The notes: generated by a model not told the origin, from the letters alone. A DNA stretch of 64,000 bases from an uncultured Holophagales bacterium (GCA_963842525.1 CAWJGT010000001.1:1-64000); one strand, 5' to 3'; positions 11,464 through 38,132 are shown, counted from the stretch's first letter. Numbers and translations are program-made.

Positions 11464-12878
11464 TAGGGCGTCGGCCCTGGCCTTCGGCCTCCTGCTTCTC
11501 GCGCTCCCGGGAGCCGCCGCCGAGCCGCCGGCAGCTCCGGTGCCGGGGCTGCCGGAAGACGTTTCGCCGCTGCCGGCCGAGGCCGCGCAGCGCATGGACG
11601 AGCTGATGAAGGCCGCCGAGAAGTACCGTGGGCTCAAGGCGAAGCGGCCGGTGGCCTCGGGCGTGATCGAAGAGAAAGTCCTGCGCGGCAAGGTCGCCGA
11701 GGAGCTGCAACAGGATCTGCCTGCCGAGGTGCTGCGGGCCCTGGGCGCCGGCCTCCAGGCGTTCGGCCTGCTCCCGGCGGACCTCGACCTCGCCCGCTAC
11801 TACCCGGAGCTGCTGACCAGCCAGGTGGCCGGCTACTACGATCCGGAGCGTAAATACCTGAGCATGGTCCACCGGGACGGCAGCCTGCTGGGTCCGGCGG
11901 CCGACGGGCTCGGCAAGCAAGCCGAGCAGCTCGAGGAGATGCTCCTCGTCCACGAGCTGACCCATGCGCTCCAGGACCAGCACTTCGACCTCAAGACCTT
12001 CGTCGAGGCCGCTCCGCTCTCGGACGCGGGCGTCGCCCGGCTGTCCCTGGTCGAGGGCGACGCAACGCTGACGATGTTCAATTTCTTTATCGGGATGCCG
12101 ATCGAGGCCATTCCCGGCGCTGGCCAGGCTCTGAGCTCACTCGATTCCGAGAAGCTCCTGGCCGCGGGCATGGACCTGCCCGGCACCCGCGAGCTGGCCG
12201 GCGCGCCCGCCTGGCTGCGCGATACGCTGCTCTTCAGCTATCTCGAAGGGTATTCGTTCTGCGTCAGCGTGCGGCAGAAGGGCGGGCAGGCGCTCCTCGA
12301 CTATTCCTTCAACCAGGATCCGCCCCGCTCTTCGGAGCAGATCCTTCATCCCGAGAAGTGGCACACGCGGCGCGACGATCCGGTCGTCCTGAGCTGGCCG
12401 GACCTGTCGGGCCGGCTTCCGGGGTTCCGCAAGGTGACCGAGGGGGAGCTGGGGAGCTGGGATCCGTACCCTCCTCCGTGGAGTCTTGCAGGATGCCGGC
12501 CGGGCCTCGGCCGCGGCGGCCGGCTGGGGAGGCGACCGGTTCGCCCTCTATGAAAAGGACGGCCGCCGCGTCCTGGCGTGGATCACGGAGTGGGACACCG
12601 AGGCCGATGCGAAGGAGGGCCTCGCCGCGGCGGAGCGGCTGGGCGAAGGGTGGCGGGTGGATCTCGTCGCCCCGCGCCGGATGGTGGCGCTGCGTTGGGC
12701 CCGGCGCGGCGAGGTTGCCGGGCTCAAGGCGGCCCTGGCCGCTGTTCCGGCCCCCCGGCCCGAGAATCGGGACCTCGACCTCGCGGCGCGCGGGATCGGC
12801 AAGGAAGGCGACCCCTCGAAGCTGCTCCAGAGTCCGATGGCGCAGCAGCTCCTCAACCGGGAGAAGCCTTCCGGTTGA
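11459..12878 (+). CDS. Secreted zincin-like putative metallopeptidase (frameshift ~12465)
   Basis: Signal peptide; AGYYDP, HELTHALQDQHF, EGDA, PPRSSEQILHPEK; AAAGWGGDR in the downstream frame. Confidence 0.7.
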
Positions 12879-15040: not shown

Positions 15041-15652
15041 TCAGAAGCGGGCGCGGAGTCCGAGGTAGACCTTGCTCTGCACCTCGTCGGCCGTATCCTG
15101 CACGAGGTCGAAGCGGCCGGCCCCGAAGGCGCTCAGGGAGCGGGTGAGGCGGAGGTCGAGGCCGAACTGGGCGTTGGCCCCGAGCTTGGTCTCGCTGCCG
15201 CTCTCGCGCGGATCGCCCGTCGCCAGGGCGGCGTCGATGAAATGGACGCCGAGGCCGACGCCGAGGAAGGTCTCGGCCGCGGCGAAGGGGAAGGCGCCGA
15301 CCAGGTTGACGCCGAGCAGCAGGTCGCTCCCTTCGATCTGGTTGCCCGACGACTCCCAGTAGCCGATCTCGGGCTCGAGATAGCCCTGGATGCTCTTGTC
15401 ACCCCGGCCCCGGTCATACCCCTCCCCCCCGTTCTCTTCGTCGTCGTAGCGTCCGACCCGTATGCGGAACGCGGCCATCAGATACATCTCCGTCTCGTCC
15501 GCGGGCTCGACGAGGCCGACGCCCACGGCCAGCGCCCAGTTGGAGACATCGGCCCCTTCGTCGTCGTAATTGTCGTCCTGCTGTGCCCAGGTCGGGCCAC
15601 TGCCGAGGAGCAGGGCACCCGCCACCATCGAGGTCGTCAGCCAGCGTCTCAT
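15041..15652 (-). CDS. Outer-membrane beta-barrel protein
   Basis: Signal peptide, alternating beta strands, C-terminal LGLRARF. Confidence 0.7.
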   Translation of the reverse strand: MRRWLTTSMVAGALLLGSGPTWAQQDDNYDDEGADVSNWALAVGVGLVEPADETEMYLMAAFRIRVGRYDDEENGGEGYDRGRGDKSIQGYLEPEIGYWESSGNQIEGSDLLLGVNLVGAFPFAAAETFLGVGLGVHFIDAALATGDPRESGSETKLGANAQFGLDLRLTRSLSAFGAGRFDLVQDTADEVQSKVYLGLRARF

Positions 15653-15740: not shown

Positions 15741-16190
15741 ATGCCGCCGTCCGGAAACAGCCTCCGCCGTGCCTTACGCCGCAGTCCCCGCGAATGGGGT
15801 CTTTTCGCCCGGGCCTGGCTCACCTTGCTCGTCGCGGATCTCTGCCTCCGCTGGCTCTCCTTCCCCCGCGTCGAGCGGCTGTTCGCGCCGTCTCCGGCAC
15901 GGTCGAGGATGCAGGCCGACGACGAGGCAGTGCGGCTCCGGGTCTGGGCCGTCGACGCCGCGGCCCGGCACCATCTGCGCCCCATGACCTGCCTGCCACG
16001 CACGCTCAGTCTGCGCTGGCTCCTCGGCCGGGCGGGCATCCCGACGGACCTCAGGATCGGGGTCGCACGCCAGGGCGGCCGGCTCCTCGCCCATGCCTGG
16101 GTGGAACGGAACGGACAGTCGATCGGTGAGCGCGAAGGGGAGCTGTCGGCCTTCCATCCCCTGCGCGAAGCGTCCTCTTTGCGCCGCTGA
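15741..16190 (+). CDS. Lasso peptide leader peptidase B2 (transglutaminase-like)
   Basis: TCLPRTL, LRIGV, AHAWVE (Cys-His motifs). Confidence 0.9.
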   Translation: MPPSGNSLRRALRRSPREWGLFARAWLTLLVADLCLRWLSFPRVERLFAPSPARSRMQADDEAVRLRVWAVDAAARHHLRPMTCLPRTLSLRWLLGRAGIPTDLRIGVARQGGRLLAHAWVERNGQSIGEREGELSAFHPLREASSLRR

Positions 16191-16191
16191 G

Positions 16192-16519
16192 TCACGGTGC
16201 CTCCGGCGGTCGCTCGGTCTCGCCCTGCAGGCGAAGGAGCCGGCGGGAGGCCAGCGTCTGGACGAACCGGACCAGGTCGGCCTCCAGTTGCTCCGGGGCG
16301 ACGTCGTACTCCTGGAGCAACTGGCGATACGCGGCTCCGACGTTGCCATGCTCCTTCAGGAGGAGCCACATCCGGGTTCCCACCTGGTCGAGGCCGAAAT
16401 AGAGTCCTGTCTCGGTATCCAGAAGGACCGTTTCGCCTTCGATCTCGTGGAAGAGGACGGTTGACGGCACGGACAGGCGCGTGGCGAGGTCGATCGTCCG
16501 AGGCGCGGAGCTTCTCCAT
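16192..16519 (-). CDS. PqqD-family RiPP recognition element (lasso B1); probable frameshift near the 5' end
   Basis: VLFHEIEGETVLLDTETGLYFGLDQVGTRMW...LLQEYDVAPEQLEADLVRFVQTL. Confidence 0.88.
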
Positions 16520-16527
16520 AGGCTGCG

Positions 16528-17499
16528 TCAGTCCAGGACCGGCGGAACGGCGCGCCGGACACTCTCCACCACCCGCGGGAGGTGCTCGAATCCGGAAGGA
16601 TAGGAGAGCCGGTAGAGCGGCACCGCCCCGGCCACGCGCGCCAGCGTGTCGAGGCGGACGGGCTGGAGGCCCGCAGCTTCCACCATGTGGGGGGTGAAGG
16701 AGTGCCGGAGCAGCTCGATGACTGCTGCCGCCGGCGGAATGGGACGAATCTCGATCTCGGGCTCGTTCCTCCGCTCGGGGAGGAAGATCGCCGCGAGGGG
16801 CGCGGGCGAGCCATGGAACCGGCCGAGACTGGCCGGCCCCCCGGAGAGACCGACCGGCACGCGTCGCTTGGAGAGCCGCGGGTGGACGAGCGGCAGGTGC
16901 TCGAAGGCGCCGAGGAAATGCCCGGCCGCGTCCGGCCACATACGCATCTGCGGGTAGCCGGGCCGGACGAAGAAGACGCCTTCCCGCTCCTCCAGAGCCG
17001 CGATGTCGTCCGTCAGCAGCGGACAGCCGGCCTCCTGCATCAGCGCGGCAGCGATGCCGGTCTTGCCGCCCCCCTCCGAGGAAAGAAACGCCACAGCCCG
17101 GCCGTCTACGATTACGGCCGAGGCGTGCAGGGCAGGATGGCCGAGGCGTTCGAGCCAATAGGCCAGGACGGGGCCGAGAAGGCGGATCTCCACCACCGCG
17201 AGATGGTCAGGGCTCACCGCCGGGCTCCCACAGGCGATCCAACCTGGACGGAGATGGAAATCGGCGAGACCTGGGAAGCACAGGAGCTCACAGGTGTCCT
17301 GCCGGTAGAGCAGGGCCGCGGGCTCGCCGTCCGCTGTGCGGAAGGGACTGCGGTAGACCAAGTGCTCCCGGCTGGCTGTTGCGAGCGGCTGCCTAGTGAG
17401 AGTGATGGTCAGCGCGGCGGGAGGGCTCCCCGGCACGAGCGGGCTGACGAAGGGGAATTCGCTTGCCAGGTCGAGGCCGAAGAGGTGGTAGAAGCGCAA
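16528..17499 (-). CDS. HPr-kinase-like (lasso-associated) kinase
   Basis: LHASAV..DGRAVAFL..GGGKT, LLTDD, PGYPQMRMWPDA. Confidence 0.8.
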   Translation of the reverse strand: MRFYHLFGLDLASEFPFVSPLVPGSPPAALTITLTRQPLATASREHLVYRSPFRTADGEPAALLYRQDTCELLCFPGLADFHLRPGWIACGSPAVSPDHLAVVEIRLLGPVLAYWLERLGHPALHASAVIVDGRAVAFLSSEGGGKTGIAAALMQEAGCPLLTDDIAALEEREGVFFVRPGYPQMRMWPDAAGHFLGAFEHLPLVHPRLSKRRVPVGLSGGPASLGRFHGSPAPLAAIFLPERRNEPEIEIRPIPPAAAVIELLRHSFTPHMVEAAGLQPVRLDTLARVAGAVPLYRLSYPSGFEHLPRVVESVRRAVPPVLD

Positions 17500-17558
17500 G
17501 GACGTCGACTCCTCCGATCGCGGGAGAGAGTCTATCTTCAGCCGGCGCGAGAGGCAGG

Positions 17559-17586
17559 AAAAGGGGAGGGCTCCAGAGCCCTCCCC
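17559..17586 (-). terminator. Rho-independent terminator after the large SdrD-B protein gene
   Basis: On the minus strand GGGGAGGGCTC-TG-GAGCCCTCCCC followed by TTTT. Confidence 0.75.
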
Positions 17587-17602
17587 CCATGTGTCGATCC
17601 CG

Positions 17603-20600
17603 TTACTGGCAGGAGGCGTCGATCTTCACCCAATCCAGCTTGAAGAGCTCGTTGTCGGCGCCGTAGTTGCTGCTGACCCGGAACCGGATCCGGGTGTTGC
17701 TCGCGATGTAGCTCGAGATGTTGTAGCTGCGCGAGCCGGTGTACGTACCGGTGAAGCCGGAGAGCGTCTCCAGCACGGTGTAGGTGGAGCCACCGTTCTT
17801 CGACACTTCGATGACCACCGCATCGTCAGGGTCGACCTCGGTGCGGACGTGGAAGCTGAAGCTCAGCGTCGCGGAGGCGAAGCCCGAGAGGTTCGCCTGG
17901 CGCGCCGCGCTCGGCTGCGTGCCGGTGTCCGGGTTGTCGCGCAGGAACAGGTAGCCGCTGTACGGGCTGCCCACGGTCACATTGCCGCTGCTCACGCCCA
18001 CACCCGCGCTGTCGGACTCCACCCACGCGCCGGCCCAGCTCAACGTGCCGTCGTTGTTCGAGAAGCTCGCGTTGTTGAAGTGATCCTTGAAGTATCCGGC
18101 CGCCGTGCAGGCTGGCGGTGTGCGGTAGCCGAAGTCGACGTCGGTGCGGTTCTGGCCGGCGCTCAGAGTGAAGGTCGCGATGTGCGCCGTGCCGGTGCCG
18201 TCGAGGTCGTAGGTCTGCGTCATCCCGGCCGGCAGGGTGCTCGACACCACCTGCACCTTGTAGGTCCCCGCCGCGAGATTGGTGAAGCTGTAGTTGCCGT
18301 CACCGCTCGTGGTCTGGGTCGCGAGCACGGTGCCGCTCGAATTGAGCAGCTTGACGGTGACTCCGTTGAGCCCCGTCTCGCCGCTGTCCTGCACGCCGTC
18401 GCCGTCGGTGTCCTTCCACACCCGGTTGCCGGCCGAGGCGGTCTCGGGCGTGTGCCCGCCGCAGGTGGTGTCGATGCGCACCCAGTCGACCTTGAAGTAC
18501 TCATCGCTGGCGCCGTAGTTGTTGCTGATCCGGAACCGGATCCTGGTGTTGCTCGCCATGTAGGCCGAGATGTTGTAGCTGCGCGAGCCGGTCTGGTTGC
18601 CGGTGAAGCCGGTCAGGGTCTCCAGCACGGTGTAGGTCGAGCCGCCGTTGTTCGACACCTCGATGACCGCGGCGTCGTCGGGGTCGGTCGCCCGGACGTG
18701 GAAGTCGAAGGACAGCGTCGCGGAGGCGAAGCCGGAGAGGTTAGCCTGGCGCGCCGCGCTCGGCTGCGTGCCGGTGTCCGGGCTGTCGCGCAGGATCAGG
18801 TACCCGCTCACCGGATTCCCCACGGTCACGTTGCCGCTGCTCACTCCCGCCCCGGCGACGTCGGACTCCACCCACGCGCCGGACCAGCTCAGCGTGCCGT
18901 CGTTGTTCGAGAAGCTCGCGGTGTTGAAGTGGTCTTTGAAGTAGCCAGCCGTGCAGGAGACCGGCGGCGTGCGGTAGCCGAAGTCGACATCGGTACGGCT
19001 GGCAGTGAGGTTGACGGTCGCCTGGTGGGCGCTCGCCGTCCCGTCGAGGTCATAGGTCTGCGTCATGCCGGCCGGCAGGGTCGCGGTGTCGATCTTCACT
19101 GTATAGGTCGTCTCAGGCAGGTTGGTGAACGTGTAGTTGCCGTTGCCCGAGGTGACCGTGCTCGCCACCTGGGTGGTGCCGATGAAGAGGCGCACGGTGA
19201 CGCCGTTGATCCCGGTTTCACTGCCGTCCTGGACGCCGTCGGCGTCTGCGTCGTTCCACACCCGGTCGCCGAGGGACCGCGTGCCGCGGTAGCCGAAATC
19301 GACATCGGTGCGGTTCTGGCCGCTGTTGAGGGTGACCGCGGCAGTATGGGGAGTCCCCGTGCCGTCGAGGTCGTAGGTGGGCGCCAGGCCGCCGACCGGC
19401 AAGGTGGAGGCGACGACGCGGACGGTGTAGGAGCCGGCCGCGAGGCTGGCAAAGGTGTAGTTGCCGTTCGAATTGGTGGTCGTCGTGGCGATGACGGTGC
19501 CGCCGCTGTTGAGCAGCTCGACCGTCGTGCCGCCCAATCCGGGCTCGTCGGCATCCTGGGACATGTCACCGTCGGTGTCGTACCAGAGGCGGTCGCCGAT
19601 GGAGCCGGTCTGGGGCGGCGTGCAGGAGGCGTCGATGCGCACCTCGTCGACCTTGAAGAAGTCGTCGTCGCCGCCGTAGTTGTTGGCGATCCGGAACCGG
19701 ATCCGGGTGTTGCTGGCCATGAAGGCCGAGATGTCGTAGGTGCGCGAGCTGATGTACGTGCCGGTCAGGCCGGTCAACGTCTCCAGCACGGTGTAGGAGG
19801 AGCCTCCGTTGTTCGAGACCTCGATGACCACTGCATCGTCGGCCTCGACTCCCCGGATGTGGAAATCGACCGTCATCGTTGCGGAAACGAAGCCGGTCAG
19901 GTTCGCCTGGCGCGCCGCGCTCGGCTGGGTGCCGGTGTCGGGGCTGTCGCGCAGGATCAGGTAGCCGCTGACCGGGGTCCCCACGGTCACGTTGCCGCTG
20001 CCCACCCCCGCCCCGGCGGTGTCGGACTCCACCCACGCGCCGGACCAGCTCAGGCTGCCGTCGTTGTTCGAGAAGCTCGCGGTGGTGAAGCGGTCCTTGA
20101 AGGTCCCCGGCGTGCAAGGTGGCACGCGGTAGCCGAAGTCGATGTCGTCGCGGTTGGCGCCGGCATCGAGGCTGAACGTCGCCGTGTGGGGTGTGCCGGT
20201 GCCGTCGAAGTCGTAGGTCGGCACGAAGCCCGGGGGCACGGTGCTGCTGACGACGCGGACCGTGTAGTTGCCGGCCGTCAGGTTGGTGAAGGAGTAGCTG
20301 CCGTCGCCGGAGGTCGTGGTCGAGGCGATGACGTTGCCGCCGCTGTCGAGCAGCTCGACGGTGACGCCGTTGATCCCCGCCTCGCCGCCCTCCTGGATGC
20401 CGTCGCCGTCGAGGTCGTTCCACACGCGGTCGCCGACCGAAGCGGTGCCGCGGTAGCCGAAGTCCACGTCGTCGCGATCCTCGCCGGCCGCCAGCGGCAC
20501 CGTCGCGCTGTCGGGCGTGCCGGTACCGTCGAGGTCATGGGTCTGCTCGAGTCCGTCCGGAAGGGTGGAGGGCACCACCCGTACTGTGTAGGTGCCGGGG

Positions 20601-22271
20601 AAGAGATGGTCGAAGGAGTAGTCGCCGTCGCCGCTCGTCGTGGTTGAGAAGAGGACGTTGTCGTCGCCGTCGAGGAGCTCGAGGGTGACGTCGTTGATCC
20701 CATCCTCGCCGGAGTCCTGAACCCCATCGCCGTTGCGGTCGAGCCAGACGCGGTCGCCGATCGAGCCGGTGCCGCGGTAGCCGAAATCGTAGGTGAGGAC
20801 GTTGTCGTCGATCACCGTCTCGGTGAGCTGGACGGGCGTCGTCGCGATGGCGCCGTCGAGCGGCCCGCCGGGATCGGAGTTGCTGGCGGCCACCCGCACG
20901 GTGTAGGTGCCGGCCTCCACCGGGAACGAGTACTGGCCGTCCGCATCCGTCGTCGTCGTCGCGATGACGACCCCCGTGCTCCCCACGAGCTCCACCTCGA
21001 CGCCGGCGATCCCGGTCTCGTTGCTCCCCGACTGGATGCCGTTGGCGTCGAAGTCGCGGAAGACGGTGTCGCCGACCAGGAACGGGCGCAGGGGCACGCA
21101 AGGCACGAAATCGTCGGACACGCACAGCGCTTCGGACGGCAGGCGGACGGCGTTCAGGTTGCTCATGTCCGCACCCTGAACTCTCAGCTCGTAGGTCCCG
21201 GCCGGGACGCTCGTCGTCGTAGCGTCCATGACCGAGGCGTTCGAACGGGTCCGTCGAGATCCGGAACTGCTCCCATTCCTGATTGCCGGACGGGTTGGGG
21301 TTGGTGAAGCTCTGGCTGTCGGGGAACAGGAGCTGCTCAAAGATGGAGGGGGGCCGCAAGAACAGCGCCGCGGCCGGGTTGAGGTCGTCTGGGGGGTTGC
21401 CCGTGCTCAGCCCAAGCCCCGTGGCCACCCCCTCCGGGACTGCGTCGCCCGTCGCCCAGGGGGGCAGGAAGGGAGCGTTCGGCGTGTCGGGATCGTCCGT
21501 GTCCCGGACCACGCCGGAGAAGTCGCCGTGATCGAAATCGCCGTCCCAAACGAAGATCTCGGTCCTCGGCTCCAGGATGTTGAAGAAGAAGCGGAACGTG
21601 CCGTCGTAGGTGGTGGGGACGAAGACCGGGAAGAGGGGATAGATGATCCGCGCCTCGTCCAGGTTCGACAGCGAGGCGATGTAGGAGAAGGGCTGATCTG
21701 CCAGCCGGATGCTGACCACCCCGTCGGTGCGCAGCTTGAAGGCGTTGTAGGACGCGACCGAGTTGTCCAGCAGCTCGATCACCAAGCGGTAGAAGTAGTT
21801 GCCGCTCGGTGCCTGGGCGCCGACACTGGTGTTGATCGGGTAGTCGATCCAGGCATTGCTCGGCATGGTCGAGGAGCTGGTCACCGGGACGCCTGGCGAC
21901 ATCTCGACGACGGTCGCCCCGCTGCCGTCCGCCAGCGGATCGGCGTACAGCGTGAAGCTGTACGGGATGCTGGCGCCGAGGTCCCAGTGCCTCCTGCCGG
22001 TGCCGTCAACTTCGCCGCCGTCGCCGTCGAAGACTCCGAGCGCGAACGAAGTCGCCCCGGCGGGAACCGCGAACTGTACCTCCAGGCGCTCCTCGCTCAG
22101 CGTCACCAAGCCGGTCCCGGACGCGATGACCAGGAACCGCCCATCAGTGGAGCTGCAGCTCGGGAAACATTTGAACTGGCCTTCTGCAGATTGTGCCGCG
22201 AAGGTCCACCCCAGCAGCAGGACCGCTGCCAGGACGAACTTCCTCACCTCTCTATACCCGGGACGGATCAT
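17603..22271 (-). CDS. Large secreted protein (~1550 aa) with multiple SdrD-B-like repeats and three Cys-bounded ~165-aa beta-rich repeats (one-base insertion ~21240)
   Basis: Signal peptide; repeated GDRVWxDxDGDGxQD...DFGY; an extra T relative to the paralog joins ORFs 20535-22307 and 17603-21340. Confidence 0.85.
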
Positions 22272-22444
22272 TGGGAAGCCCTCCAAAAGATTCACTGACC
22301 TGGCCATGATTTCCCCCGAGCGTCAGGAGAGCGTCAGGTCGTGGCGGGGAACATCGCGCCAGGGTGCGGCAGAGGGCTCGGGAGGCGGGAGGGGTGGGCC
22401 CGCGCCTCGCGGCGCGGGTCCGTCTGCCTACGGGATGACCCGGC

Positions 22445-24637
22445 TCAGTCGCGGTGCGGAGCGCAGAGCTGGCCGTTGTTGTAGTTGTCGAGCTGCGTGT
22501 GCCAGGGCGAGGCCTGGGCCCACGCGGAGCTCGAGCCGCCGACGTTGCTGCCCGGCGGATGGGCTGCCATCCAGGCATCCGCCGACGCGGCGGTCTGGTA
22601 GATGCAGGATGGATCGTTGCCTGCGATCAGGCTGAGCTTGGTGGCGACGAGCTGCTTGAACAGGTCGATCGACTTGTCGCCGCGGCTCGGAGTGCCCAGG
22701 AGGACGATCGCCTGGTCGCGCGTGTAGACCACGCCGCCGATGGTGATGGTGCTCACCGGCCAGGCCGCGGGGTGGTTCTTCCAGTAGCCGATGGTGGCGG
22801 TGCCCGGAGCCGGCGGGCGGTAGCCGAAGTCGGCGTCCGTCCGGCTCTGGCCGCCGTTGACCGCCGCGGTGGCGATGTGGGCCGTGCCCGAGCCGTCCAG
22901 GTCATAGGTCTGGGCCATGCCGGCCGGCAACGTCGAGGAGACGACCTTGACCTTGTAGGTGCCGGCCAGGAGGTTGGGGAAGGTGTAGTTGCCGTCCCCG
23001 GCCGTCACCGCGGAGGCGATGACGTTGCCGGCGGTGTCGAGGAGCTGCACGGTGACCCCGTTGATCCCCACCTCGCCGGCGTCCTGGACGCCGTCGCCGT
23101 CGTAGTCGAGCCAGACGCGGTCGCCCAGAGAGGCGGTGCCGCGGTAGCCGAAGTCATAGGTCAGGACGTTGTCGTTGACGACCGTCTCGGTGCGCTGGTT
23201 GCCAGTCGTGGAGATGGTGCCCGCGAGCGGCCCGCCGGGGGCGAAGTTGGAGGACGCAGGCTGGATGGTGAAGGTGCCGGCGTCCACCGGGAACGAGTAG
23301 TGGCCGTTGGCGTCCGTGGTCGTCGTCGCGATGACGGTCCCCAGCGATCCCAACAGCTCCATCACCACGCCGGAGATCCCGGTCTCGCCGGCGCCCGACT
23401 GGATGCCGTTGGCGTCCGGGTCGCGGAAGACCGTGTCGCCGACCAGGAACGGGCGCAGGGGCACACAGGGCACGGATTCCTCCGACACGCACAGCGCCTC
23501 GGACGGCAGGCGGAGGGCGTTGAGGTTGCTCATGTCCACGCCCTGGATCCGCAGCTCGTACGTCCCGTCCGGGACGCTCGTCGTCGAGGCGTCCATGACC
23601 GAGGCGTCGAACGGGTCCGTGGAGATCCGGAACTGCTCCCACTCCTGGTTGCCGGACGGGTTGGGGTTGGTGAAGCTCTGGCTGTCCGGGAAGATCAGTT
23701 GCTCGAAGATGGAGGGTGTGCGCAGGAACAGGGCGGCGGCTGGGTTGAGGTCGTCCGGGGGATTGCCCGTGCTCAGCCCGAGCCCCGTGGCCACCCCCTC
23801 CGGGACGGCGTCGACCGTCGCCCAGGGGGGCAGGAAGGGAGCGTTCGGCGTGTCGGTGTCGTCCGTGTCCCGGACCAGGCCGGCGAAGTCGCCGTGGTCG
23901 AAGTCGCCGTCCCAGACGCTGATCTCGGTCATCGGCTCGGCGACGTTGAAGAAGAAACGGAACGTGCCGTCGTAGGTGGTGGGGACGAAGGCCGGGAAGA
24001 GGGGATAGATGATGCGCGCCTCGTCCAGGTTCGACAGCGAGGCGATGTAGGAGAAGGGCTGATCCGCCAGCCGGATGCTGACCACTCCGTTCGTGCGCAG
24101 CTTGAAGGCGTTGTACGACGAGAGCGAATTGTCCAGCAGCACGATCTCCAGGCGGTAGAAGTAGTTGCCGCTCGGCGACTGGGCGTCGACGCTGGTGTTG
24201 ATCGGGTAGTCGGCCCAGGCGTTGCTCGGCATCGTCAGCGAGCTGGTCACCGGGACGCCCGGCGACATGTCGACGATGGTCGTCCCGCTGCCGTCCGCGA
24301 GCGGATCGGCGTACAGCGTGTAGCTGTAGGGAATGTTGGCGCCGAGGTCCCAGTGCCGCTTGCCGGTGCCGTCGAGCCCGCCGCCGTCACCATCGAAAAC
24401 GCCGAGCGTGAACGAGGCCACCCCGGCCGGGACCGCGAACTGCACCTCCAGGCGTTCCTCGCTCAGTGTGACGAGGCCGGTCCCGGAGGCGATGACCAGG
24501 AACCGTCCATCGGTCGAGCTGCAGCTCGGAAAGCACTTGAGCTGACCTTCTGCGGGCTGCGCCGCGAAGGCCCATCCCAGCAGCAGGACCGCTGCCAGGA
24601 CATACCACGTACCCTTTGTTCTCACCGGACAGATCAT
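22445..24637 (-). CDS. Secreted SdrD-B-like repeat protein, paralog of 17603-22271 with a different C-terminal TIGYWKNH domain
   Basis: GGAGGA RBS; N-terminal domain nearly identical to the neighbour; two SdrD-B repeats. Confidence 0.85.
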   Translation of the reverse strand: MICPVRTKGTWYVLAAVLLLGWAFAAQPAEGQLKCFPSCSSTDGRFLVIASGTGLVTLSEERLEVQFAVPAGVASFTLGVFDGDGGGLDGTGKRHWDLGANIPYSYTLYADPLADGSGTTIVDMSPGVPVTSSLTMPSNAWADYPINTSVDAQSPSGNYFYRLEIVLLDNSLSSYNAFKLRTNGVVSIRLADQPFSYIASLSNLDEARIIYPLFPAFVPTTYDGTFRFFFNVAEPMTEISVWDGDFDHGDFAGLVRDTDDTDTPNAPFLPPWATVDAVPEGVATGLGLSTGNPPDDLNPAAALFLRTPSIFEQLIFPDSQSFTNPNPSGNQEWEQFRISTDPFDASVMDASTTSVPDGTYELRIQGVDMSNLNALRLPSEALCVSEESVPCVPLRPFLVGDTVFRDPDANGIQSGAGETGISGVVMELLGSLGTVIATTTTDANGHYSFPVDAGTFTIQPASSNFAPGGPLAGTISTTGNQRTETVVNDNVLTYDFGYRGTASLGDRVWLDYDGDGVQDAGEVGINGVTVQLLDTAGNVIASAVTAGDGNYTFPNLLAGTYKVKVVSSTLPAGMAQTYDLDGSGTAHIATAAVNGGQSRTDADFGYRPPAPGTATIGYWKNHPAAWPVSTITIGGVVYTRDQAIVLLGTPSRGDKSIDLFKQLVATKLSLIAGNDPSCIYQTAASADAWMAAHPPGSNVGGSSSAWAQASPWHTQLDNYNNGQLCAPHRD

Positions 24638-24793
24638 TTTAAGTCCTCCATTGCAAAATAAGAGTACTTCCAGGCAAGCAGAGGGACGTCGCTCCAGACC
24701 AACGCCGGAACCCACCGCGTCCGCCTGCAGATTCACTTCGAATCGATGCAGTGGAGTCTGGGGAGTCTGCGTCAGGAAAACGTCAGGGACGGA

Positions 24794-26035
24794 TCAGGAG
24801 GGCGGCGTTCTCGCGAAAAGGCCACGCTCTTGCAAGGTCTTGAAGAAGCGCGAAAGGTCCGTAGCGAGGGTCTCGTCCGGGACGTGGTAGCGCGCGTGGA
24901 GAAGGCGGAGTGCGGGAGCCAGATCGCCTCCCCGGAGGAGCGCCCACCACATGGCATGGGCCGTCCCGAGCAGGCGGAAGACCTCCCCGGTGTCGAGCCG
25001 ATGGACGATCGTCTCGCCGCGGCGCCAGGCGAACAAGACCGCGGGCGCGGGGCGCCAGGGTCCGGTGCCCCGCGGCTGGACCTGGATGCGGGAGCGCGGC
25101 ACGGCGGCCTGTCCCGCGCCCCGCTTCAGGCAGCGCTCCGGCGGCACCAGCTTCCAGCCAAGCTCCACCTCCGCAGTCTCGGGGTTCCAGACCACGCGGT
25201 CGGGTTCGTTCCAGGGGAAGGCAATGCGCTCGCAATCGCCGAGCCAGTACCGGCCGGGGCCGAGCCGCTGCTGCCAGCGCTCCCGGGCCTCGGCCCAGGC
25301 TCCGGCGAGGCGGTCGGGTCCCTCGTCCCGGAGGTCCTGGCCGGCGATGCAGACCAGCACCCGCGGCTCCCGGGCCTGCAACGCTTCGCGCAGAGCCGGA
25401 TGGGAGTAGAGATGGGCAAAGATCACTCGCGGGGCGATGCAGCGGCCGAGAAAGGCGGCGAACCGGGCGCCACTCAAGGAGCAGTCGTCAACGACGACCA
25501 AGGGCTCTTCGCCGTCCTCTGGAGCCGCGAGCACCCGGTCGGCCGGCACGTCGAGGTGAGCGGCCAGCAGGCCGAGGACGATCAATCCTCCCCGCGGGAT
25601 CGCCGTATAGCGGAAGCCCCGGACCTGCGTGATTCCGTACTGCCGGATGAGCTCGCCGGCAAGCCGCCTGACCGCCGTCTCCACCTCCGGGTATCCCACG
25701 CAGCGAAGACGGCCGGGCGCGCTTTCGAAAGCGCGCGCCTGGTAGAGGAGATGGGCCGGATTCATTCCGGTCTCCCCGGCGATGATCCCGATCACCGGGT
25801 CGGGCGCGGGACGCAAGGCGAAGGTGATCCCGGGGAGGCTGCGCCATGGCTCGCTGCCGGCGAGAGCCCGGGCGAGCGCGATCAGCGCGGAGCGATCGCT
25901 GCGCAACCCGAGGCTGCGACGATAGTGTCGAAGGGAGGGAGTGTCGAACCGGAGGATGCAGACGAAGGAGGGTTCCTCACCGCGCTGATCAGATGGCGGC
26001 TCCCGCTCAAACGGCCTTGGTGGTGAGGAGGTCAT
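24794..26035 (-). CDS. Phosphoribosyltransferase-like domain fused to a C-terminal PqqD/RRE
   Basis: AIPRGG and LVVVDDCSLSG (type I PRTase motifs); C-terminal LDTGEVFRL...MW...LHARYHVPDETLATDLSRFFKTLQERGL. Confidence 0.75.
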   Translation of the reverse strand: MTSSPPRPFEREPPSDQRGEEPSFVCILRFDTPSLRHYRRSLGLRSDRSALIALARALAGSEPWRSLPGITFALRPAPDPVIGIIAGETGMNPAHLLYQARAFESAPGRLRCVGYPEVETAVRRLAGELIRQYGITQVRGFRYTAIPRGGLIVLGLLAAHLDVPADRVLAAPEDGEEPLVVVDDCSLSGARFAAFLGRCIAPRVIFAHLYSHPALREALQAREPRVLVCIAGQDLRDEGPDRLAGAWAEARERWQQRLGPGRYWLGDCERIAFPWNEPDRVVWNPETAEVELGWKLVPPERCLKRGAGQAAVPRSRIQVQPRGTGPWRPAPAVLFAWRRGETIVHRLDTGEVFRLLGTAHAMWWALLRGGDLAPALRLLHARYHVPDETLATDLSRFFKTLQERGLFARTPPS

Positions 26036-26198
26036 AGTCCACGGCAGCCCCGGCGCCGCCGCGCGTGAGCTCCAGGAGCGAGCCCCACTCGATGAGCTGG
26101 GGAGCGCTGTACTTCTTGCGCGGGCGCCGTCCCGGGCCCGGGCCCGGACCAGCGTCCGGCCTGGGCCATGGACCGTGGCTTGCCATATCCTCAGACAT
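26007..26198 (-). CDS. Lasso peptide precursor (63 aa); predicted core GGAGAAVDYDLLTTKAV
   Basis: GAGGAG RBS; leader KKYSAPQLIEWGSLLELTR with YxxPxL and Thr(-2); core G1 with D8 acceptor. Confidence 0.9.
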   Translation of the reverse strand: MSEDMASHGPWPRPDAGPGPGPGRRPRKKYSAPQLIEWGSLLELTRGGAGAAVDYDLLTTKAV

Positions 26199-27957
26199 CT
26201 CTGACTCCTCTCGACACCCCGCTGAAGGATGACACCGGCTCATCCGAAGCCGTTGGATTCGACACCTCTTCCCGCGAGCGCAGCCAGGATTCGGCACAGA
26301 GAAAACCGATCAGTCGATGCGGCGGCGCGAGCCGGTCCGTGCTCGACCAGTACGCCTCCCACTCCGCGCGCAACCCGTCGCCGGACGCCAGGCCGGACTG
26401 GACGACCCGCGAGCCCGCGAGGAGGCCCAGCACCCGGCTCTTCTCGCGGTCGCGCAGCCCGCGGTGCTGGAGCTCCGCGAAATGGGCCAGGCTCGTCCGT
26501 TGCCGCACCTCCTCGGGGAGGATCCCCCGCATCGACTCGCGCAGGATCCACTTGATCCAGCCGTCGCGGAAGCGGACCCGCGCCGGCACGGCGAGGAGGA
26601 AGTCGATCACCCGCCGGTCGAGGAAGGGGAGGCGGACCTCGACCCCGGCATGATCCGCGGCGATCCGCAGGGCCGCGAGCTTCGCCGAGAACGTCCCCTC
26701 GGTCAGATAGCGGAAGCTCTCCTGCGCGGCGAGCGTCGGCAGCGGCGGCATCACCTGGGGCCGGCCCGCGCGGGGTGTTCGGGGGGCGCGGCGGGCGAGC
26801 CGGCGTACCGCCTCCGGCACCGCCGGCCGGACATAGGCGTCCAGCAGGAGCCCCGCGGTTGTCCGCCGGCTGTAGCGCCGGAAGTGGGGAAGCTCGGCGA
26901 GCAGCCGCCGCGCCTCCACGTCGCGCAGCTCGAAGGGCTTGTGGTAAGGCTCCCCGCTCAACACCTGGTCGCCGCCGATTCCGGCGAGCACGATCCGGCA
27001 GCCGTCTTGGCGGGCCTGCCGCAACGGCCGCAGGAGCAGGGCGCGGGTGATGCCGACCTCGGGTTCGGCCTGGGGATAGCCCTCCTCGCCGCCGAGCTCG
27101 CGCAGGCCCCAGCAGTCGTCGCTGGGGATGCAGGTCATCCGCGCCCGCGGGCAGCGGCGGGCGACCGCCTCCGCAAACTCCCGCTCCTCGGCTCCTGGCG
27201 TTTCGGCAAACACGGAGGAGTAGAAATGGAGGTCGATGTCCGATTCCAGGTGATGGGCCGCGCAGGCGATGGCCGAGGAGTCGAGACCGCCGCTCACCAG
27301 GAAACCCACGGGGCCCGGGCCGCGCAGACGGCTGCCGACCGCGGCGAGGAAGATCTCGCGGAAGCGCTCCACGTACTCCTCGTCCCGGCGCAGCGGAGGG
27401 CCCGGCTCGGCGCCGAACGTCCAGTAGCGCGACAGGACGAGCCGCTCGCCCTCCACAACCATCCAGTGGGCCGGTGGCAGCCTCTGGACGCCGTGGTAGG
27501 GCGTCTCCGCGATCCAGCGGTCGAAGCGCCAGGCAAGGAGGTCGCGCAGGAACGGCTCGTTCACCGCGGGAGGAGACTCCAGGGCAGCCAGCACGGCGTC
27601 CAGGGTCGAGGCGGCGGTCAGCCGGCGGCGATCCAGCGCGTAGTAGAACGGACGGACCCCGAGGGGGTCGCGAGCGCAGAAGAGGCGCCGCCGGCGCGCA
27701 TCCCAGAGAGCGAAGGCGAAGTCGCCGATCAGCCGGCGCGGGCAGTCCTCCTCCCAGCGCTCATAGGCGGCGAGGACGATCTCGGCATCGGTGGCCGTGC
27801 GCTCGTCCACCGCACCCCCGAGCTGGGCGCAGAGCTCCGGCCGGTTGTCGAGGCGCAGGTCCGCGGCGATCCACAGGCCGCGGCCGGCAAGCCCGACCGG
27901 CTGGCCGGGCTGGACCGCGGCCCCGTCGCGCGCGAAGACCGCGGCGAATCCGCTCAC
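26191..27957 (-). CDS. Lasso cyclase (asparagine-synthetase-like C protein)
   Basis: GDFAFALWD, ARDPLGVRP, SGGLDSS, GIGGD, RLPFLD; no N-terminal catalytic Cys; overlaps the precursor start. Confidence 0.9.
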   Translation of the reverse strand: MSGFAAVFARDGAAVQPGQPVGLAGRGLWIAADLRLDNRPELCAQLGGAVDERTATDAEIVLAAYERWEEDCPRRLIGDFAFALWDARRRRLFCARDPLGVRPFYYALDRRRLTAASTLDAVLAALESPPAVNEPFLRDLLAWRFDRWIAETPYHGVQRLPPAHWMVVEGERLVLSRYWTFGAEPGPPLRRDEEYVERFREIFLAAVGSRLRGPGPVGFLVSGGLDSSAIACAAHHLESDIDLHFYSSVFAETPGAEEREFAEAVARRCPRARMTCIPSDDCWGLRELGGEEGYPQAEPEVGITRALLLRPLRQARQDGCRIVLAGIGGDQVLSGEPYHKPFELRDVEARRLLAELPHFRRYSRRTTAGLLLDAYVRPAVPEAVRRLARRAPRTPRAGRPQVMPPLPTLAAQESFRYLTEGTFSAKLAALRIAADHAGVEVRLPFLDRRVIDFLLAVPARVRFRDGWIKWILRESMRGILPEEVRQRTSLAHFAELQHRGLRDREKSRVLGLLAGSRVVQSGLASGDGLRAEWEAYWSSTDRLAPPHRLIGFLCAESWLRSREEVSNPTASDEPVSSFSGVSRGVRDV

Positions 27958-28053
27958 TTATTAAATTTCCCCCTGAGGTGTGGTTTCGCCATGGCGTTGG
28001 TCCTGGGTCCTTCTGAGCAGGGTCGAGGCGTTGGATGCCCCGGCGCGCTCCAC

Positions 28054-28338
28054 CTAGGAGCGCTCCGTCCGCGGGGCGCCGCCCTCCGGGGCGGCCTCCT
28101 GCTGCGGTTCCTTTTTATCTCCAAGGTGCTGGCGGACCAGCTCTCCGATCTTGCCGGGATCGTTCAGGTAGTGCTCTTGACCGGTCTGGAGGTTCTTGAT
28201 GCTCCCTCGGAGCGCCTGCTCTCCGGGGGCGGCTTCCGGCTCCACCCAGAAACGCACCAGGAAGGACCCGGACTGATGGTTCCGGGATCTCTTCTTGCCC
28301 CGACCGGTCTCGCCGGTTTTCTCTTCGTTGCTCTCCAT
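28054..28338 (-). CDS. Small hypothetical protein
   Basis: SFLVRFWVE...LRGSIKNLQTGQEHY; divergent from the SARP gene; start uncertain. Confidence 0.55.
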   Translation of the reverse strand: MESNEEKTGETGRGKKRSRNHQSGSFLVRFWVEPEAAPGEQALRGSIKNLQTGQEHYLNDPGKIGELVRQHLGDKKEPQQEAAPEGGAPRTERS

Positions 28339-28462
28339 GACCGCGTTCATCATTATCATCCTATTCGGGACTTTTGATACTTTCAGCATGAAGATGAGGC
28401 GTCAGGGAAGCGTCAGGAAGCGTTCGGGGGAGCCCGGGGACCCGGGATCCGTGGAGGCCGGC

Positions 28463-30818
28463 ATGGCTCCTGCGGGTGCGGCGGCGGCCGGTCCTGCGCC
28501 CGGGTTGCGGGTACGGCTGCTGGGCGGATTCGAGGTCTGGCACGGCGACCAGCCGGTCGGCGGCTTCGAGTCGCAGAAGGTGCGGGCCCTCCTCGCCTAT
28601 CTGGTCAGCCACCCCGACCGCGGCTTCAGCCGTGAGAGCCTCGCCGGGCTGCTCTGGCCGGACCGCGACCCCGAATCGGCCCGCCACGCCCTGCGCCAGG
28701 CAGTCTACAACATGAAGGCAAGCCTGCCGGACAACAGCCCGGGGGAGCCGCCCATTCTCAGCGACCATCTCGGCCTGCGGTTCAACGCCCGGTCGGGTGT
28801 CTGGGTGGACGTGGCGGCCTTCGAAGACGCCCTGCGCCGGGGCCGGGAGCAGGACAGCGTGGACCCCCACCACCTCTCGGCGGCCGTGCACCTCTACCGC
28901 GGCCAGCTCCTTGCCGGCTTCTTCCTCAAGGACAGCGAGTCGTTCGAGGAGTGGCTCGTGGCCGAGCAGGAGCGGCTCCGCGAGGCGGCCCTCGACGGTT
29001 TGCGCACGCTCATCGAGGTCTACCGGCGGCGCGGCGAGCACCGCCTCGGCATCCACTATGCCCGCAGGCTGATCGCCATCGAGCCGCTCTCGGAGGAGAC
29101 CTGCCGCGACCTCATGCGGATGTGCGCCCGGGCGGGCCGGCGCAGCCTGGCCCTGGCCGAGTACGAGCGGCTGAAAGGCCTGCTGGCGCGGGAAGCTCGG
29201 CGTGGACCCCCTGCGGGAGACGCGGGACCTCCATCAGTCGATCCTCCTCGACACCGCCGAGGAGGAGGTCCCCTTGCGCGACGACGCCCCGATCGGCCCT
29301 CTCGTCCCGCTGGCCGGCCGGGTCGAGCCCCTGGCCCTGCTGCGCACCGCCTGGAAGCGGGTGCTCGGCGGCGCGGCGCAGCTCGTCCTGGTGACCGGCG
29401 AGGCGGGGGTCGGCAAGACGCGCCTGATCAAGACCTTCCTCGACGTCGCAACGTCGCAGAAGTGGGCCGCGGTGCTCAAGGGGAGCTGCTTCGAACGCGC
29501 GCCGGTGGTGCCCTACCGGGCCGTGGCGGAGATGCTGGCCAGCGTCGTGGCGGACCCCACTGAAGCCGCCGAGCGGGTGCTGGCCCTGGCCGGCCCGGAG
29601 CAGCTCGCCGACGTCGCCCGGCTCTGCCCCGCCCTGCGCGACCTGCGCCCGGACCTGCCCGTTGCCGCGCCGCTGGCCGGCGCAGCGGACTGCAGCCGCT
29701 TCTTCGCGTCCGTCGCCGGCTTCGTGGCAGGCCTCTGCACCGGCGGCAGGCCGTCGTCTCCACAGCCGGTCATCCTCTTCCTGGATGACTTCCACCTGGC
29801 CGACCAGGACACCCGAGCGCTCCTCGACCACCTCGTCGTCGATCTCGCGGACCTCCCTGTGCTGGTGGTCGTCGCCAGCCGCTCCGCCGGGGCGGGGGAG
29901 GCCTTCCTGCTGCAGTCGGCCGGCGCCGGGGCTTCCCGGATCGACCTGGGGCGCCTCTCCGCGGCGGCGGTCCAGGAGATCGCCGGCTCCCTGGTGGGCG
30001 AGGAGCAGTTGGCCGTGCTGGCCCGCCTCCTGGACGAGCGCGGCAGCGGCCTGCCCCTGGCCGTGGCCGAGCTCATCAACCACTTCTGGGACGAGGGCCT
30101 GCTCATCCCGCAGGGCGGGTCCAGGTGGCGGCTGGCCGAGGCGCTCGACGAGCGCCTCGTGCCCCGCGGCGAGCCCCTTCAGGAGCTGGTCGCCGCGCGC
30201 ATCCGCCGCCTCCCCAGCTCGACCCGCCGGCTGACGGCCCTGGCCGCGGTGGCCGGTCACGCCTTCGACTCCGGGCTCCTGGAGAAGGCTGGGGACGAGC
30301 ACGCCGCCGTCGTCGAGATCGGCCTCGAGGTCCTGCTCCGGCGCTGGCTGATCCGCCAGCGCCTCCAGCACTGGGCGAGCGGCCGGCGGCAGCGCGACAT
30401 CGTGCTCTGGAGCGAGGGCGCCCGCCGGGGCAGCTTCGAATTCGCCCATCCGGTTCTCCACGACCTGATCTATGAAGAGATCCACCCGCTGCGGCGGCAG
30501 GTCCTGCACGGCGAGGTCGCCGCCGCCCTGGAAGACCTGCACGGCGGCCAGGTGGACCGCGTCTGCGAGGTCCTGGCCCACCACTACACGGCGGCGGGCG
30601 TCTGGGGCAAGGCCTGGCTCTATCTGGAGATGTCGGCCCGGCGGGCCCGCGACCTCCTGGCCCGGGACGCCGCCCGCCACCATGGCCGTCTGGCCCTCCA
30701 GGTCCTCGACCGCCTGGAGGCCGCCGCCCCGGGCGACGGCGCCTGGCGCGAGGCCCGCCGGCTTCTCGAAGACCTGCTGAGCGAGATGTCCGGTCCGGAT
30801 CCCGAAGCTGCCGCCTAG
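28463..30818 (+). CDS. SARP/AfsR-type regulator (wHTH-BTAD + AAA ATPase), frameshift ~29195
   Basis: LLGGFEV, KVRALLAYL, LYRGQLL, FEEWL, EPLSEE; GEAGVGKTRL, LDDFHLAD, FAHP. Confidence 0.88.
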
Positions 30819-31717
30819 CCGCACTTGCCGGGATCCGGGTCGAGGAGCTCGCGGTAGGGCTCGCCGCGCGCACAGCCGAACCGGGCGGCGAGCTCCGACA
30901 ATCTTGTTTCGAGCGCCTCCCGGTGCAGCGGGCTGAGCTCGCGGCCGGATCCGGCCTTCCCCTGGCGGATCACCCCCGGGAGACCCGGCCGGGCGTCCAG
31001 GAAACGGCTGTCGAGCTTCTCCTCATGCCGCTTCATGAAGCCGAGGCCGCACCGCTCGACGATCCGCGCCAGATCCTCCTCACGCAGGGGAAGGCCGCAG
31101 AAGCGGGCGACGCGGCGGGCGGTGCCCGCGAGGTCGGCGACGATCTCCTCGTAGCTCAGGAAGAGGACGTTCGGGTCGTGGCGGTGGGGCCACCAGGACC
31201 GCAGGTGCTGGAACCAGGTCGAGGAGGCGCCCCAGCCCTGGCGCAGGAACTCCTCCGTGAATGCCTCCAGGCTGGCTGTCTTGCCGAGCAGGCGCGCGTG
31301 GTGGAAGGCCGACACCGCCACGTCCCGCACGTCGCGCACGACGTAGATGAACCGGCCCTGGCGCGGGAGCTGGCGGCGGAGCAGGTGCGTCTTGAAATAC
31401 CGGGGAGAGGTGAGCGCCTCCAGGCGGTCGGCGCCGTTGCGCAGGAGCTCCCGCTCGATCCAGGGGCAGACGTCGTCGATGTGCGCGATGTCGTCCATGC
31501 CGCCGCCGGTCGTAAGCTGGTACAGCATCATCTGCATCAGCGTCGTGCCCGACTTGGGATAGGTGACGAGGAAGACGTCGTCCGGCCGCGGCCGGCAGAT
31601 CCCCCAGCCGATCCGGTACATCAGGGAATGCTGGAGTGCATGCCCGGTCCGCAGGAGGAGCGCCGGCACCGGCATCAGCGCCCTCCAGACCTTCGTCGAG
31701 AGCTTCCGTCGACCCAC
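30815..31717 (-). CDS. PAPS-dependent sulfotransferase (Sulfotransfer_1 type)
   Basis: TYPKSGTT, KTHL, RDVRDVAVS, LSYEE. Confidence 0.9.
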   Translation of the reverse strand: MGRRKLSTKVWRALMPVPALLLRTGHALQHSLMYRIGWGICRPRPDDVFLVTYPKSGTTLMQMMLYQLTTGGGMDDIAHIDDVCPWIERELLRNGADRLEALTSPRYFKTHLLRRQLPRQGRFIYVVRDVRDVAVSAFHHARLLGKTASLEAFTEEFLRQGWGASSTWFQHLRSWWPHRHDPNVLFLSYEEIVADLAGTARRVARFCGLPLREEDLARIVERCGLGFMKRHEEKLDSRFLDARPGLPGVIRQGKAGSGRELSPLHREALETRLSELAARFGCARGEPYRELLDPDPGKCG

Positions 31718-37935: not shown

Positions 37936-38132
37936 GGGCGGGCTCCTTGCGGTAAGCCCGGCCGGAAGCCATAATCAGCGTGCTGGTCTGCTCGGCTTCG
38001 GTCGGGCGGGCAAGGCCCTGGGGGTCGTTGACGCGACTTCCAGGGCCGTTTTCATGCTGTGAGTATAGCACAAGGATATCCTCTGTCAACCCCCTATGTT
38101 GACTCGGAGAATCTTTCTGGTAGACTTAGGGC

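Follow-up and report, generated by a model that had tools for sequence, protein, structure and literature searches.

Comparison With Described Systems

The closest described relatives of the locus reported here are lasso peptide clusters that encode an HPr-like kinase. The locus lies on contig C1 of the genome of an uncultured Holophagales bacterium (GCA_963842525.1; 9.95 Mb, 34 contigs). The first 64,000 nucleotides of this contig are called the window, and statements taken from published work refer to the accessible parts of the papers cited. Similar to the paeninodin, ThcoK, SyanK and pseudomycoidin clusters (PMC9266682; PMC6993621), the window possesses genes for split B1 and B2 proteins, a cyclase (C), a kinase with a His-Lys-Asp-Asp motif and a second tailoring enzyme coupled to the kinase. 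In the window this second enzyme is a phosphoribosyltransferase (PRTase) fused to a RiPP recognition element (RRE). We tentatively favor the reading that the window holds an intact Acidobacteriota lasso locus, in which a Streptomyces antibiotic regulatory protein (SARP) would activate one regulon that includes two SdrD-B proteins and in which the PRTase-RRE would modify the peptide. The nearest homologs of the window proteins were labeled Thermoanaerobaculia or Acidobacteria, and the closest named locus (L022) is an Acidobacteriota record.

The window had originally been likened to paeninodin-type clusters, an analogy that fails at several points. One group of published lasso kinases targets a C-terminal Ser (PMC9266682), whereas the core peptide of the window contains no Ser at all. 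Moreover, neither a nucleotidyltransferase nor an ABC exporter is found in the cluster. Different from the paeninodin group, the window has an internal tail Thr as the conserved hydroxyl, a PRTase-RRE in the place of the NTP_transf_5 protein, predicted SARP control and SdrD-B genes. As in the window, the kinases of the Bradymonas bsf cluster (BsfK; PMC10368454) and of the LPP family (LppK; PMC13381572) are RRE-assisted HPr-like kinases with a non-terminal target. Both BsfK, which accepts Thr, and LppK act on residue 3, in the ring or N-terminus, and have a nucleotidyltransferase as partner, whereas the conserved site of the window lies in the tail. According to PMC13381572, no role is known for lasso peptides tailored by a kinase, and the window is also similar to the paeninodin-group clusters in that these often lie near surface-polymer genes (PMC13381572).

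Two further comparisons concern regulation and secreted proteins. Similar to the SARP regulons of Streptomyces (AfsR, PimR and ActII-ORF4; PMC10972967), the window encodes an activator with winged helix-turn-helix (wHTH), bacterial transcriptional activation (BTAD) and ATPase domains beside its predicted targets, whose -35 regions carry heptamers repeated every 11 bp. The host, the heptamer and the presence of secreted repeat proteins among the targets are different. The two secreted proteins share SdrD-B repeats with the staphylococcal MSCRAMMs SdrD and SdrC, but their head differs and neither a Ser-Asp stalk nor a sortase signal was seen in them. The lasso scaffold is ordinary and the PRTase-RRE fusion already has a hidden Markov model (HMM); what is new here is the conserved promoter repeat that links the lasso run with both SdrD-B genes.

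The Lasso Core Set and the Precursor Peptide

By every feature that could be tested on the DNA the window holds a lasso peptide cluster, and the threaded topology of its product is predicted. The complete lasso machinery that had been proposed was recovered, with precursor, B1, B2 and cyclase all present and their matches over or near the cut-offs. B2, the kinase, the PRTase-RRE and the precursor are each single-copy in the genome, and only the cluster's own precursor was precursor-like among six matches of a genome-wide scan for the leader pattern. The core has 17 residues, with a free N-terminal Gly1 and an acid at Asp8, and its hydroxyls are limited to Tyr9, Thr13 and Thr14. Its calculated monoisotopic mass is 1620.84 in the linear form and 1602.83 when cyclized; the cyclized core would reach 1682.79 with phosphate, 1814.83 with ribose-5-phosphate and 1894.80 with both.

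Related cores were taken from 90 PRTase-RRE loci. Besides the window itself, these were 13 stretches from genomes and 76 of 80 metagenome loci (four duplicates were dropped and near-copies remain); L025, L027 and L035 were left out. A ring Asp or Glu at position 7–9 was found in 58 of the 62 distinct cores, consistent with the 17-residue core and 8-residue ring originally proposed, for which closure between Gly1 and Asp8 is predicted. Asp10 was also considered as ring acceptor and was rejected, given that Asp8 is the conserved acid and a 10-residue ring lies outside the natural range of lasso peptides. Tyr9 or Leu11/Leu12 had been proposed as possible plugs, but the bulky tail residue that is better kept among the nearest cores, as judged by eye, is Lys/Arg15. 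From what is known of these families, B2 would very probably cut the leader and C close the ring. Two variants were noted among related loci. In L031 (2470–6441) one precursor is flanked by two cyclase genes, and a PRTase-RRE sub-family (L045, L050, L051, L052, and L061) has cores with two Cys residues, at position 3 and about position 13, and a Gly-x-Ser/Thr further down the tail.

The best NCBIfam match of the cyclase was the lasso cyclase model NF033535, at 340 bits and below the cut-off of 525. Alignment with homologs revealed a gap of ~43 residues in its N-terminal domain. The same region was missing from four others among the 27 aligned proteins (3 rows were too short to judge), with two types of boundary, and these four were database proteins at 65–82% identity. 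By this alignment the deletion is real and recurrent.

The Kinase and the Conserved Tail Hydroxyl

The His-Lys-Asp-Asp motif known from lasso HPr-like kinases (PMC9266682) was kept in all kinases aligned (Table 1). The related cores share a tail hydroxyl: Ser or Thr was present 5–7 residues past the ring acid in 48/62 cores, compared with a mean of 31.8 and a maximum of 44 in 2000 tail shuffles, and Gly-Ser/Thr was present in 36/62 (shuffle mean 12.9, maximum 25). Thr14 is the residue of the window at this position. A C-terminal Ser was rare and was found in 6 of the 58 cores that have a ring acid. In addition, among 14 cores from loci without PRTase-RRE, 10 contained Gly-Ser/Thr and 11 had the Ser/Thr, a count matched by 26 of 2000 shuffles. 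Thus, the tail motif goes with the kinase and is uninformative about the acceptor of the PRTase. The kinase gene was directly downstream of the PRTase-RRE gene in 48 of the 62 loci with room for it; a further 10 loci, including the window, have it at another position.

The kinase would likely phosphorylate the internal Thr14 on the linear precursor. BsfK offers a precedent for an RRE-assisted kinase with a non-terminal Ser/Thr target (PMC10368454), and a Thr inside the tail would add another site to those of the published lasso kinases. The precursors of L161 and L176, two loci without PRTase-RRE, have Tyr at the conserved Ser/Thr position, and their kinases, both on long branches, may be Tyr-directed.

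The PRTase-RRE Fusion

One search identified 331 homologs of the PRTase-RRE, and 424 clusters at 50% identity were identified at E ≤ 1e-30. Named homologs include those of Actinomycetota, cyanobacteria and Desulfobacteraceae, while in the class itself 8 of 401 genomes, including the one studied here, gave a match. The structure model of the fusion had a mean predicted local distance difference test (pLDDT) score of 91.9. Structure search found a type I PRTase core fold at residues ~108–305, whose best match was the HGXPRT 4z1o (Z 13.6, root-mean-square deviation (rmsd) 2.3, 121 residues aligned), while the best match of the RRE part (residues 327–410) was TbiB1 5v1u (Z 13.3, rmsd 1.7, 84 residues aligned).

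P147, G149, G150, D183, D184, and G189 were invariant in 102 homologs, and R148 and R191 were found in 100 of them. These residues fit a pyrophosphate loop and a di-acidic phosphoribosyl pyrophosphate (PRPP) loop with its Ser/Thr-Gly, and the two loops were almost unchanged across the 102 sequences. Similar to type I purine PRTases such as XGPRT and HGXPRT (4z1o, 6kp5, and 1a98), the fusion thus combines the core fold with these two loops. Its identities with those enzymes were 16–26%, and it differs from them in an extra N-terminal region, the fused RRE and the lack of the base-activating Asp of purine salvage. Position 187, three residues past the acidic pair and presumably the counterpart of the purine-activating Asp of XGPRT, was Leu in 60, Ile in 13, Phe in 12, and Gln in 10 of the 102 sequences. 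Other residues are conserved specifically in this family, including C185 (101), C302 (101), E277 (100), and K304 (93). The modeled PRTase-RRE looks like a PRPP-binding enzyme that has a non-purine acceptor and is tethered to the lasso leader.

A cyclase was found in 38 of 42 PRTase-RRE loci. The PRTase-RRE loci L023, L024, and L030 encode both an NTP_transf_5 nucleotidyltransferase and a methyltransferase in addition; the PRTase-RRE is thus no simple replacement for the nucleotidyltransferase.

From its fold and motif, the YxxPxL leader would be gripped by B1 or by the fused RRE. In pseudomycoidin, PsmN is needed for the addition of a hexose to the phosphorylated peptide, in which the sugar is on the phospho-Ser (PMC6993621). 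By analogy, the leader-tethered PRTase-RRE could plausibly, though we say so with reserve, transfer ribose-5-phosphate from PRPP, most simply onto the phospho-Thr.

The main alternative is that the PRTase domain transfers nothing and that the fusion is a ligand-gated RRE, with a domain that binds PRPP, a nucleotide or a phosphopeptide and either stimulates or gates the activity of the kinase and B2. A Thr-phosphorylated lasso peptide would then be the product. The PRTase-RRE is dispensable, given that 14 of 20 other loci possess cyclase and precursor without it and have the same tail motif. Its presence changes seven times on a quick, weakly supported kinase tree, of which the starred branches force just one change, so that the tree is no demonstration of repeated gain or loss. 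In L022 and L026 no RRE besides the fused one was found near the precursor, lasso kinases are accelerated by RREs (PMC10368454), and regulatory PRTase folds are found in the list of structure matches. However, a discrete B1 is also kept in most loci, including the window, and even among distant homologs both PRPP-site loops and many neighboring residues show almost no variation. Moreover, RRE fusions usually mark an enzyme that acts on the precursor (PMC12710340). We consider a non-transferring fusion somewhat less likely than transfer.

Other chemistry at the phosphorylated residue, for instance phosphate elimination to dehydrobutyrine or dehydroalanine (Dha) or formation of a cross-link, is an improbable role for a recruited PRTase fold. 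The conservation of C185, C302, K304, and E277 is unexpected for purine PRTases and would fit such chemistry, as would the Leu that mostly occupies the presumed position of the purine-activating Asp. The PRPP-binding signature, however, is intact, and we know of no lyase with a PRTase fold. A Dha-containing lasso peptide appears, by the title of a reference, in PMC13352647. Transfer of ribose-5-phosphate is retained as the preferred prediction for the PRTase-RRE.

The fusion has been cataloged: Table S1 of PMC12710340 gives an HMM named RREFam048 "Phosphoribosyl_Transferase_RRE" with a cut-off of 19 bits. It is by this name alone that RREFam048 matches the PRTase-RRE of the window, as the accessible part of that source gives no substrate, cluster type or activity, and its main text does not mention a PRTase-RRE. 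The term "phosphoribosyl" was absent from the accessible text of PMC13352647, PMC9266682, and PMC13381572 and from the readable supplements of PMC7470986, two supplement files of which were unreadable. The list of lasso modifications in a 2026 review (accessible part of PMC13352647) does not contain ribosylation. No characterization of a PRTase-RRE was found in this literature, and subscription papers and bioRxiv supplements could hold more.

A Promoter Repeat Shared by the Lasso and SdrD-B Genes

The window contains three copies of a direct repeat, a heptamer that recurs every 11 bp, compared with 0.03 expected, and these are three of the four matches in the whole genome. Each of the three is just upstream of one gene, namely those for a conserved protein of 98 amino acid residues, SdrD-B #1 and SdrD-B #2. 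The run that begins with the 98-aa open reading frame (ORF) continues through C, A and the PRTase-RRE with gaps of 96, -8, and -29 bp, and SdrD-B #2 is followed by the kinase and B1 with gaps of 103 and 57 bp. No repeat was found before B2 or the sulfotransferase gene in the window.

The repeat pattern was derived from the window, and its relatives served as the test. In these, a repeat lay within 350 bp of 13/13 starts of the 98-aa ORF and of 24/40 starts of genes for the SdrD-B head domain, and near 0/8 B2, 0/18 kinase, 0/8 groEL, 0/5 omp, and 2/22 cyclase starts. Overall, 39 cluster stretches (600 kb) contained 45 sites, compared with none in 302 kb of control DNA. Sites were present in 22/22 stretches with a SARP gene and in 5/17 without a visible one (cross-counted by eye), and the other PRTase-RRE loci (456 kb) contained a single site. 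Nine bp past the second repeat, A and T were found in 91 and 98% of sites, respectively, at the two ends of a -10-like hexamer, positions that lie outside the pattern. Given the distance to this hexamer, the repeats sit over the -35 region, as do SARP sites, whose heptamers recur every 11 bp and overlap -35 (PMC10972967). The cluster combines a wHTH-BTAD activator with 11-bp-period repeats over a -35 position, the -10 being deduced from conservation. The bare motif is not unique; it is its position and the downstream hexamer that carry the argument.

The SARP-AAA protein would very probably bind these repeats and open three promoters, which drive 98-aa ORF-C-A-PRTase-RRE, SdrD-B #1, and SdrD-B #2-kinase-B1. 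As the same promoter repeat precedes the lasso run and both SdrD-B genes, the surface proteins probably share the lasso regulon. No family was found for the 98-aa ORF in domain or profile searches, and its look-alikes were unnamed clusters from Chloroflexota and Pseudomonadota; it is a candidate small partner of BTAD regulators.

Conservation of the Locus and the SdrD-B Proteins

The genes were predicted to form an unusual architecture, but the locus is conserved across several families of the order. The ~370-aa SdrD-B head domain was found in 24 of 401 genomes of the class, and 20 further stretches were taken around matches to the head domain or the RRE. The head was present in 19 of these stretches, cyclase and precursor in 14, and the SARP gene in 14. 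Synteny in the related stretches also bore out that the cluster genes co-occur in other genomes, with a recurrent block of SARP-AAA, 98-aa ORF, SdrD-B, B1, (B2), C, A, (PRTase-RRE) and kinase genes that often adjoins groEL, an omp gene or hlyC. Where core genes seemed to be lost in relatives, the idea of loss was rejected, since B2 and sometimes C are relocated: B2 was elsewhere in 5/5 genomes without it in the fetched stretch, and genome G002 has an orthologous cyclase on another contig. The GC content of the cluster, overall and at third codon positions (GC3), resembles that of the flanking genes. These observations suggest a long-kept chromosomal locus.

The head was modeled confidently (pLDDT 93.9) and folds as beta-sandwiches. 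Its matches, to jelly-roll, GOLD, CBM and collagen-binding domains, were weak, with a best E of 6.7e-4 and a best Z of 7.1 over residues 1–159. Searches for an enzyme such as an isopeptidase gave no clear match, although the second half of the head was barely covered. Look-alikes in the ESM Atlas were unnamed clusters and a LipL32 lead. As whole proteins, the two did not reach the MSCRAMM model NF012181, with 261 and 86 bits compared with a cut-off of 2500. Two variations were observed around the SdrD-B genes of relatives. L125, L159, L160, L163, and L164, from genomes of the same family, have SdrD-B genes of 3,700–4,800 codons at the same position. In a locus of the same genus (L028:13607–16912), two S8 subtilase genes lie between the SdrD-B gene and B2. 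The gene of the window for an outer-membrane beta-barrel-like protein, at 15041–15652, is also kept beside the kinase or B2 gene in several loci of the same family and could serve uptake or display.

The alternative that the SdrD-B genes are mere passengers and the lasso peptide an ordinary defensive metabolite has little probability. Most non-acidobacterial PRTase-RRE loci lack SdrD-B (the head was found in 10/90, many of these loci being short), head-domain genes occur without lasso genes in view in 6/20 loci, and, as noted, the head has no clear enzyme match. On the other side, the SdrD-B genes bear the promoter repeat of the lasso operon, the kinase and B1 genes follow SdrD-B #2 across short gaps, and the head domain was found in 18/19 other genomes with a kinase match <1e-40 (compared by eye). 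Probable membership of the SdrD-B proteins in the lasso regulon is the reading retained.

Frameshifts and Integrity of the Locus

SdrD-B #2 (near 21240) and SARP-AAA (near 29195) each contain one extra base compared with a paralog or relatives, and SARP-AAA is a single ORF in relatives. When 233 ORFs from 24 stretches of the same genus were matched to the assembly, the frame changed at 18 of the 85 gene places with a match (132 kb, including the SARP gene), or about once per 7 kb. At this rate about two breaks are expected in 16 kb, as were seen. An earlier, stricter survey (0/26 places) missed the SARP break and was discarded because its thresholds were too strict. The frameshift of SdrD-B #2 is probably an assembly error. 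A further gene at 11453–12553 (+), for a signal-peptide protein with a weak match to the Hvo_1808 family, has a C-terminus that looks frameshifted, which is consistent with the indel rate of the assembly.

That the cluster is decaying in this genome and makes no product is very improbable: although two frameshifts, one of them in the activator, accompany the cyclase deletion, and the short identical contigs of one DNA run (one of them over 25901–26078) bridged neither break among the 8 of 44 pieces listed, both breaks are of the same kind and fit the assembly's error rate, the cyclase gap is common to four other proteins, and the core ORFs, like the three repeats, are all intact.

Points Weighing Against the Proposed Reading

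Several observations weigh against the favored reading. All enzyme activities here are predictions from sequence, and the cyclase scores below its family cut-off and bears a deletion. The regulatory or binding PRTase folds PyrR, PurR and PAP39 appear in the same list of structure matches as the purine PRTases. Gly-Ser/Thr is equally present in loci without PRTase-RRE and is silent on its acceptor. The kinase gene of the window is 7.3 kb from the PRTase-RRE gene, and no kinase was seen in 4/62 loci. Thr13 and Tyr9 are alternative kinase sites, and the related kinase LppK refuses Thr in place of Ser (PMC13381572). Regarding the repeat, its pattern comes from the window itself and the related genomes are not independent. 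In near-complete genomes, the repeat matches inside the locus were 2/7 (G396), 2/3 (G426), 1/10 (G010), and 1/1 (G050), and G007, which has no head-domain match, has six repeat matches.

Gene Inventory, Sulfotransferase and Neighboring Genes

ORF and domain searches placed each gene of the cluster at the position and in the orientation originally given (Table 1). The two frameshifts, the cyclase deletion, the 98-aa ORF and the three repeats had escaped notice originally.

TABLE 1. Genes and promoter repeats of the lasso locus, by position in the window.
Feature	Position	Strand	Remarks
Outer-membrane beta-barrel-like gene	15041–15652	-	Divergent from B2
B2 leader peptidase	15741–16190	+	NF033537, 71.7 bits (cut-off 33); Cys and His conserved; convergent with B1; without SARP-type repeat
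B1, discrete PqqD-type RRE	16192–16470	-	PF05402, 65.8 bits
HPr-kinase-like peptide kinase	16528–17499	-	H125, K146, D164, D165 invariant in 65/65; TIGR04352 weak
Secreted SdrD-B #2	17603–22307	-	Conserved head, SdrD-B repeats, reelin-like domains; frame split near 21240
SARP-type direct repeat 3	22322–22338	-	Before SdrD-B #2, then kinase and B1
Secreted SdrD-B #1, 730 aa	22445–24637	-	Signal peptide; head of ~370 aa (beta-sandwich); two SdrD-B repeats; C-terminal domain with Cys
SARP-type direct repeat 2	24771–24787	-	Before SdrD-B #1
PRTase-RRE fusion, 413 aa	24794–26035	-	Type I PRTase fold ~108–305; C-terminal lasso-type RRE ~325–410
Precursor A, 63 aa	26007–26198	-	YxxPxL leader, Thr at -2; NF033521, 20.8 bits (cut-off 19); core 26010–26060
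Lasso cyclase C, AsnB-like	26191–27957	-	Asn_synthase and GATase_7; no N-terminal Cys; ATP loop intact; ~43-aa in-frame deletion in N-terminal domain
Conserved 98-aa ORF	28054–28350	-	No family; heads C-A-PRTase run; homologs in related loci
SARP-type direct repeat 1	28401–28417	-	Divergent gap between 98-aa ORF and regulator
SARP (wHTH + BTAD)-AAA regulator	28463–30818	+	PF00486, PF03704, PF13191; split near 29195; start codon inferred
Sulfotransferase	30815–31717	-	PF00685

The sulfotransferase is probably a bystander and would take no part in biosynthesis. It was found in 3/90 PRTase-RRE loci and in 0/20 other loci. Its gene points away from groES, and a 50% paralog is encoded on contig C9. 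It was rejected as a tailoring enzyme for its rarity in the loci, the lack of a regulatory repeat and the paralog elsewhere. The three modifications at most that had been proposed are thus reduced to two at most. Domain search found no ABC exporter between 15041 and 33878. The nearest ABC-2 pair is 7.5 kb away, and its permease had no match in 32 related stretches.

Outside the cluster, a low-GC region to the right of groEL (34699–39424) contains IS1182, IS1/IS240-like and split IS66 transposase genes. A protein with an AbiJ N-terminal domain 4 is encoded at 1419–2261, in a low-GC stretch near the start of the contig, and is possibly an anti-phage gene.

Implications

The lack of a dedicated exporter, the fixed chromosomal site and the co-regulated adhesin-like proteins suggest a role of the product in surface or community behavior more than in antibiosis. 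For the order as a whole it is conceivable, although rather unlikely, that SARP proteins co-induce SdrD-B proteins and a lasso peptide, whose tail Thr/Ser would be phosphorylated and, where a PRTase-RRE is present, capped with ribose-5-phosphate; the peptide would then work with the surface fiber as ligand, cofactor or signal and not as an antibiotic.

Most valuable are the predicted chemistry of the PRTase-RRE and the evidence, from the promoter repeats, that secreted surface proteins may share the lasso regulon. If true, capping with ribose-5-phosphate would be a PRPP-dependent peptide modification that was not found in print. A large, cataloged but uncharacterized enzyme family would thereby have a defined substrate, a candidate site at Thr14 and a predicted mass of +212 Da, and it could reveal new RiPP chemistry. 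The conserved activator site, in turn, offers a handle to switch the locus on and to probe a non-antibiotic function.

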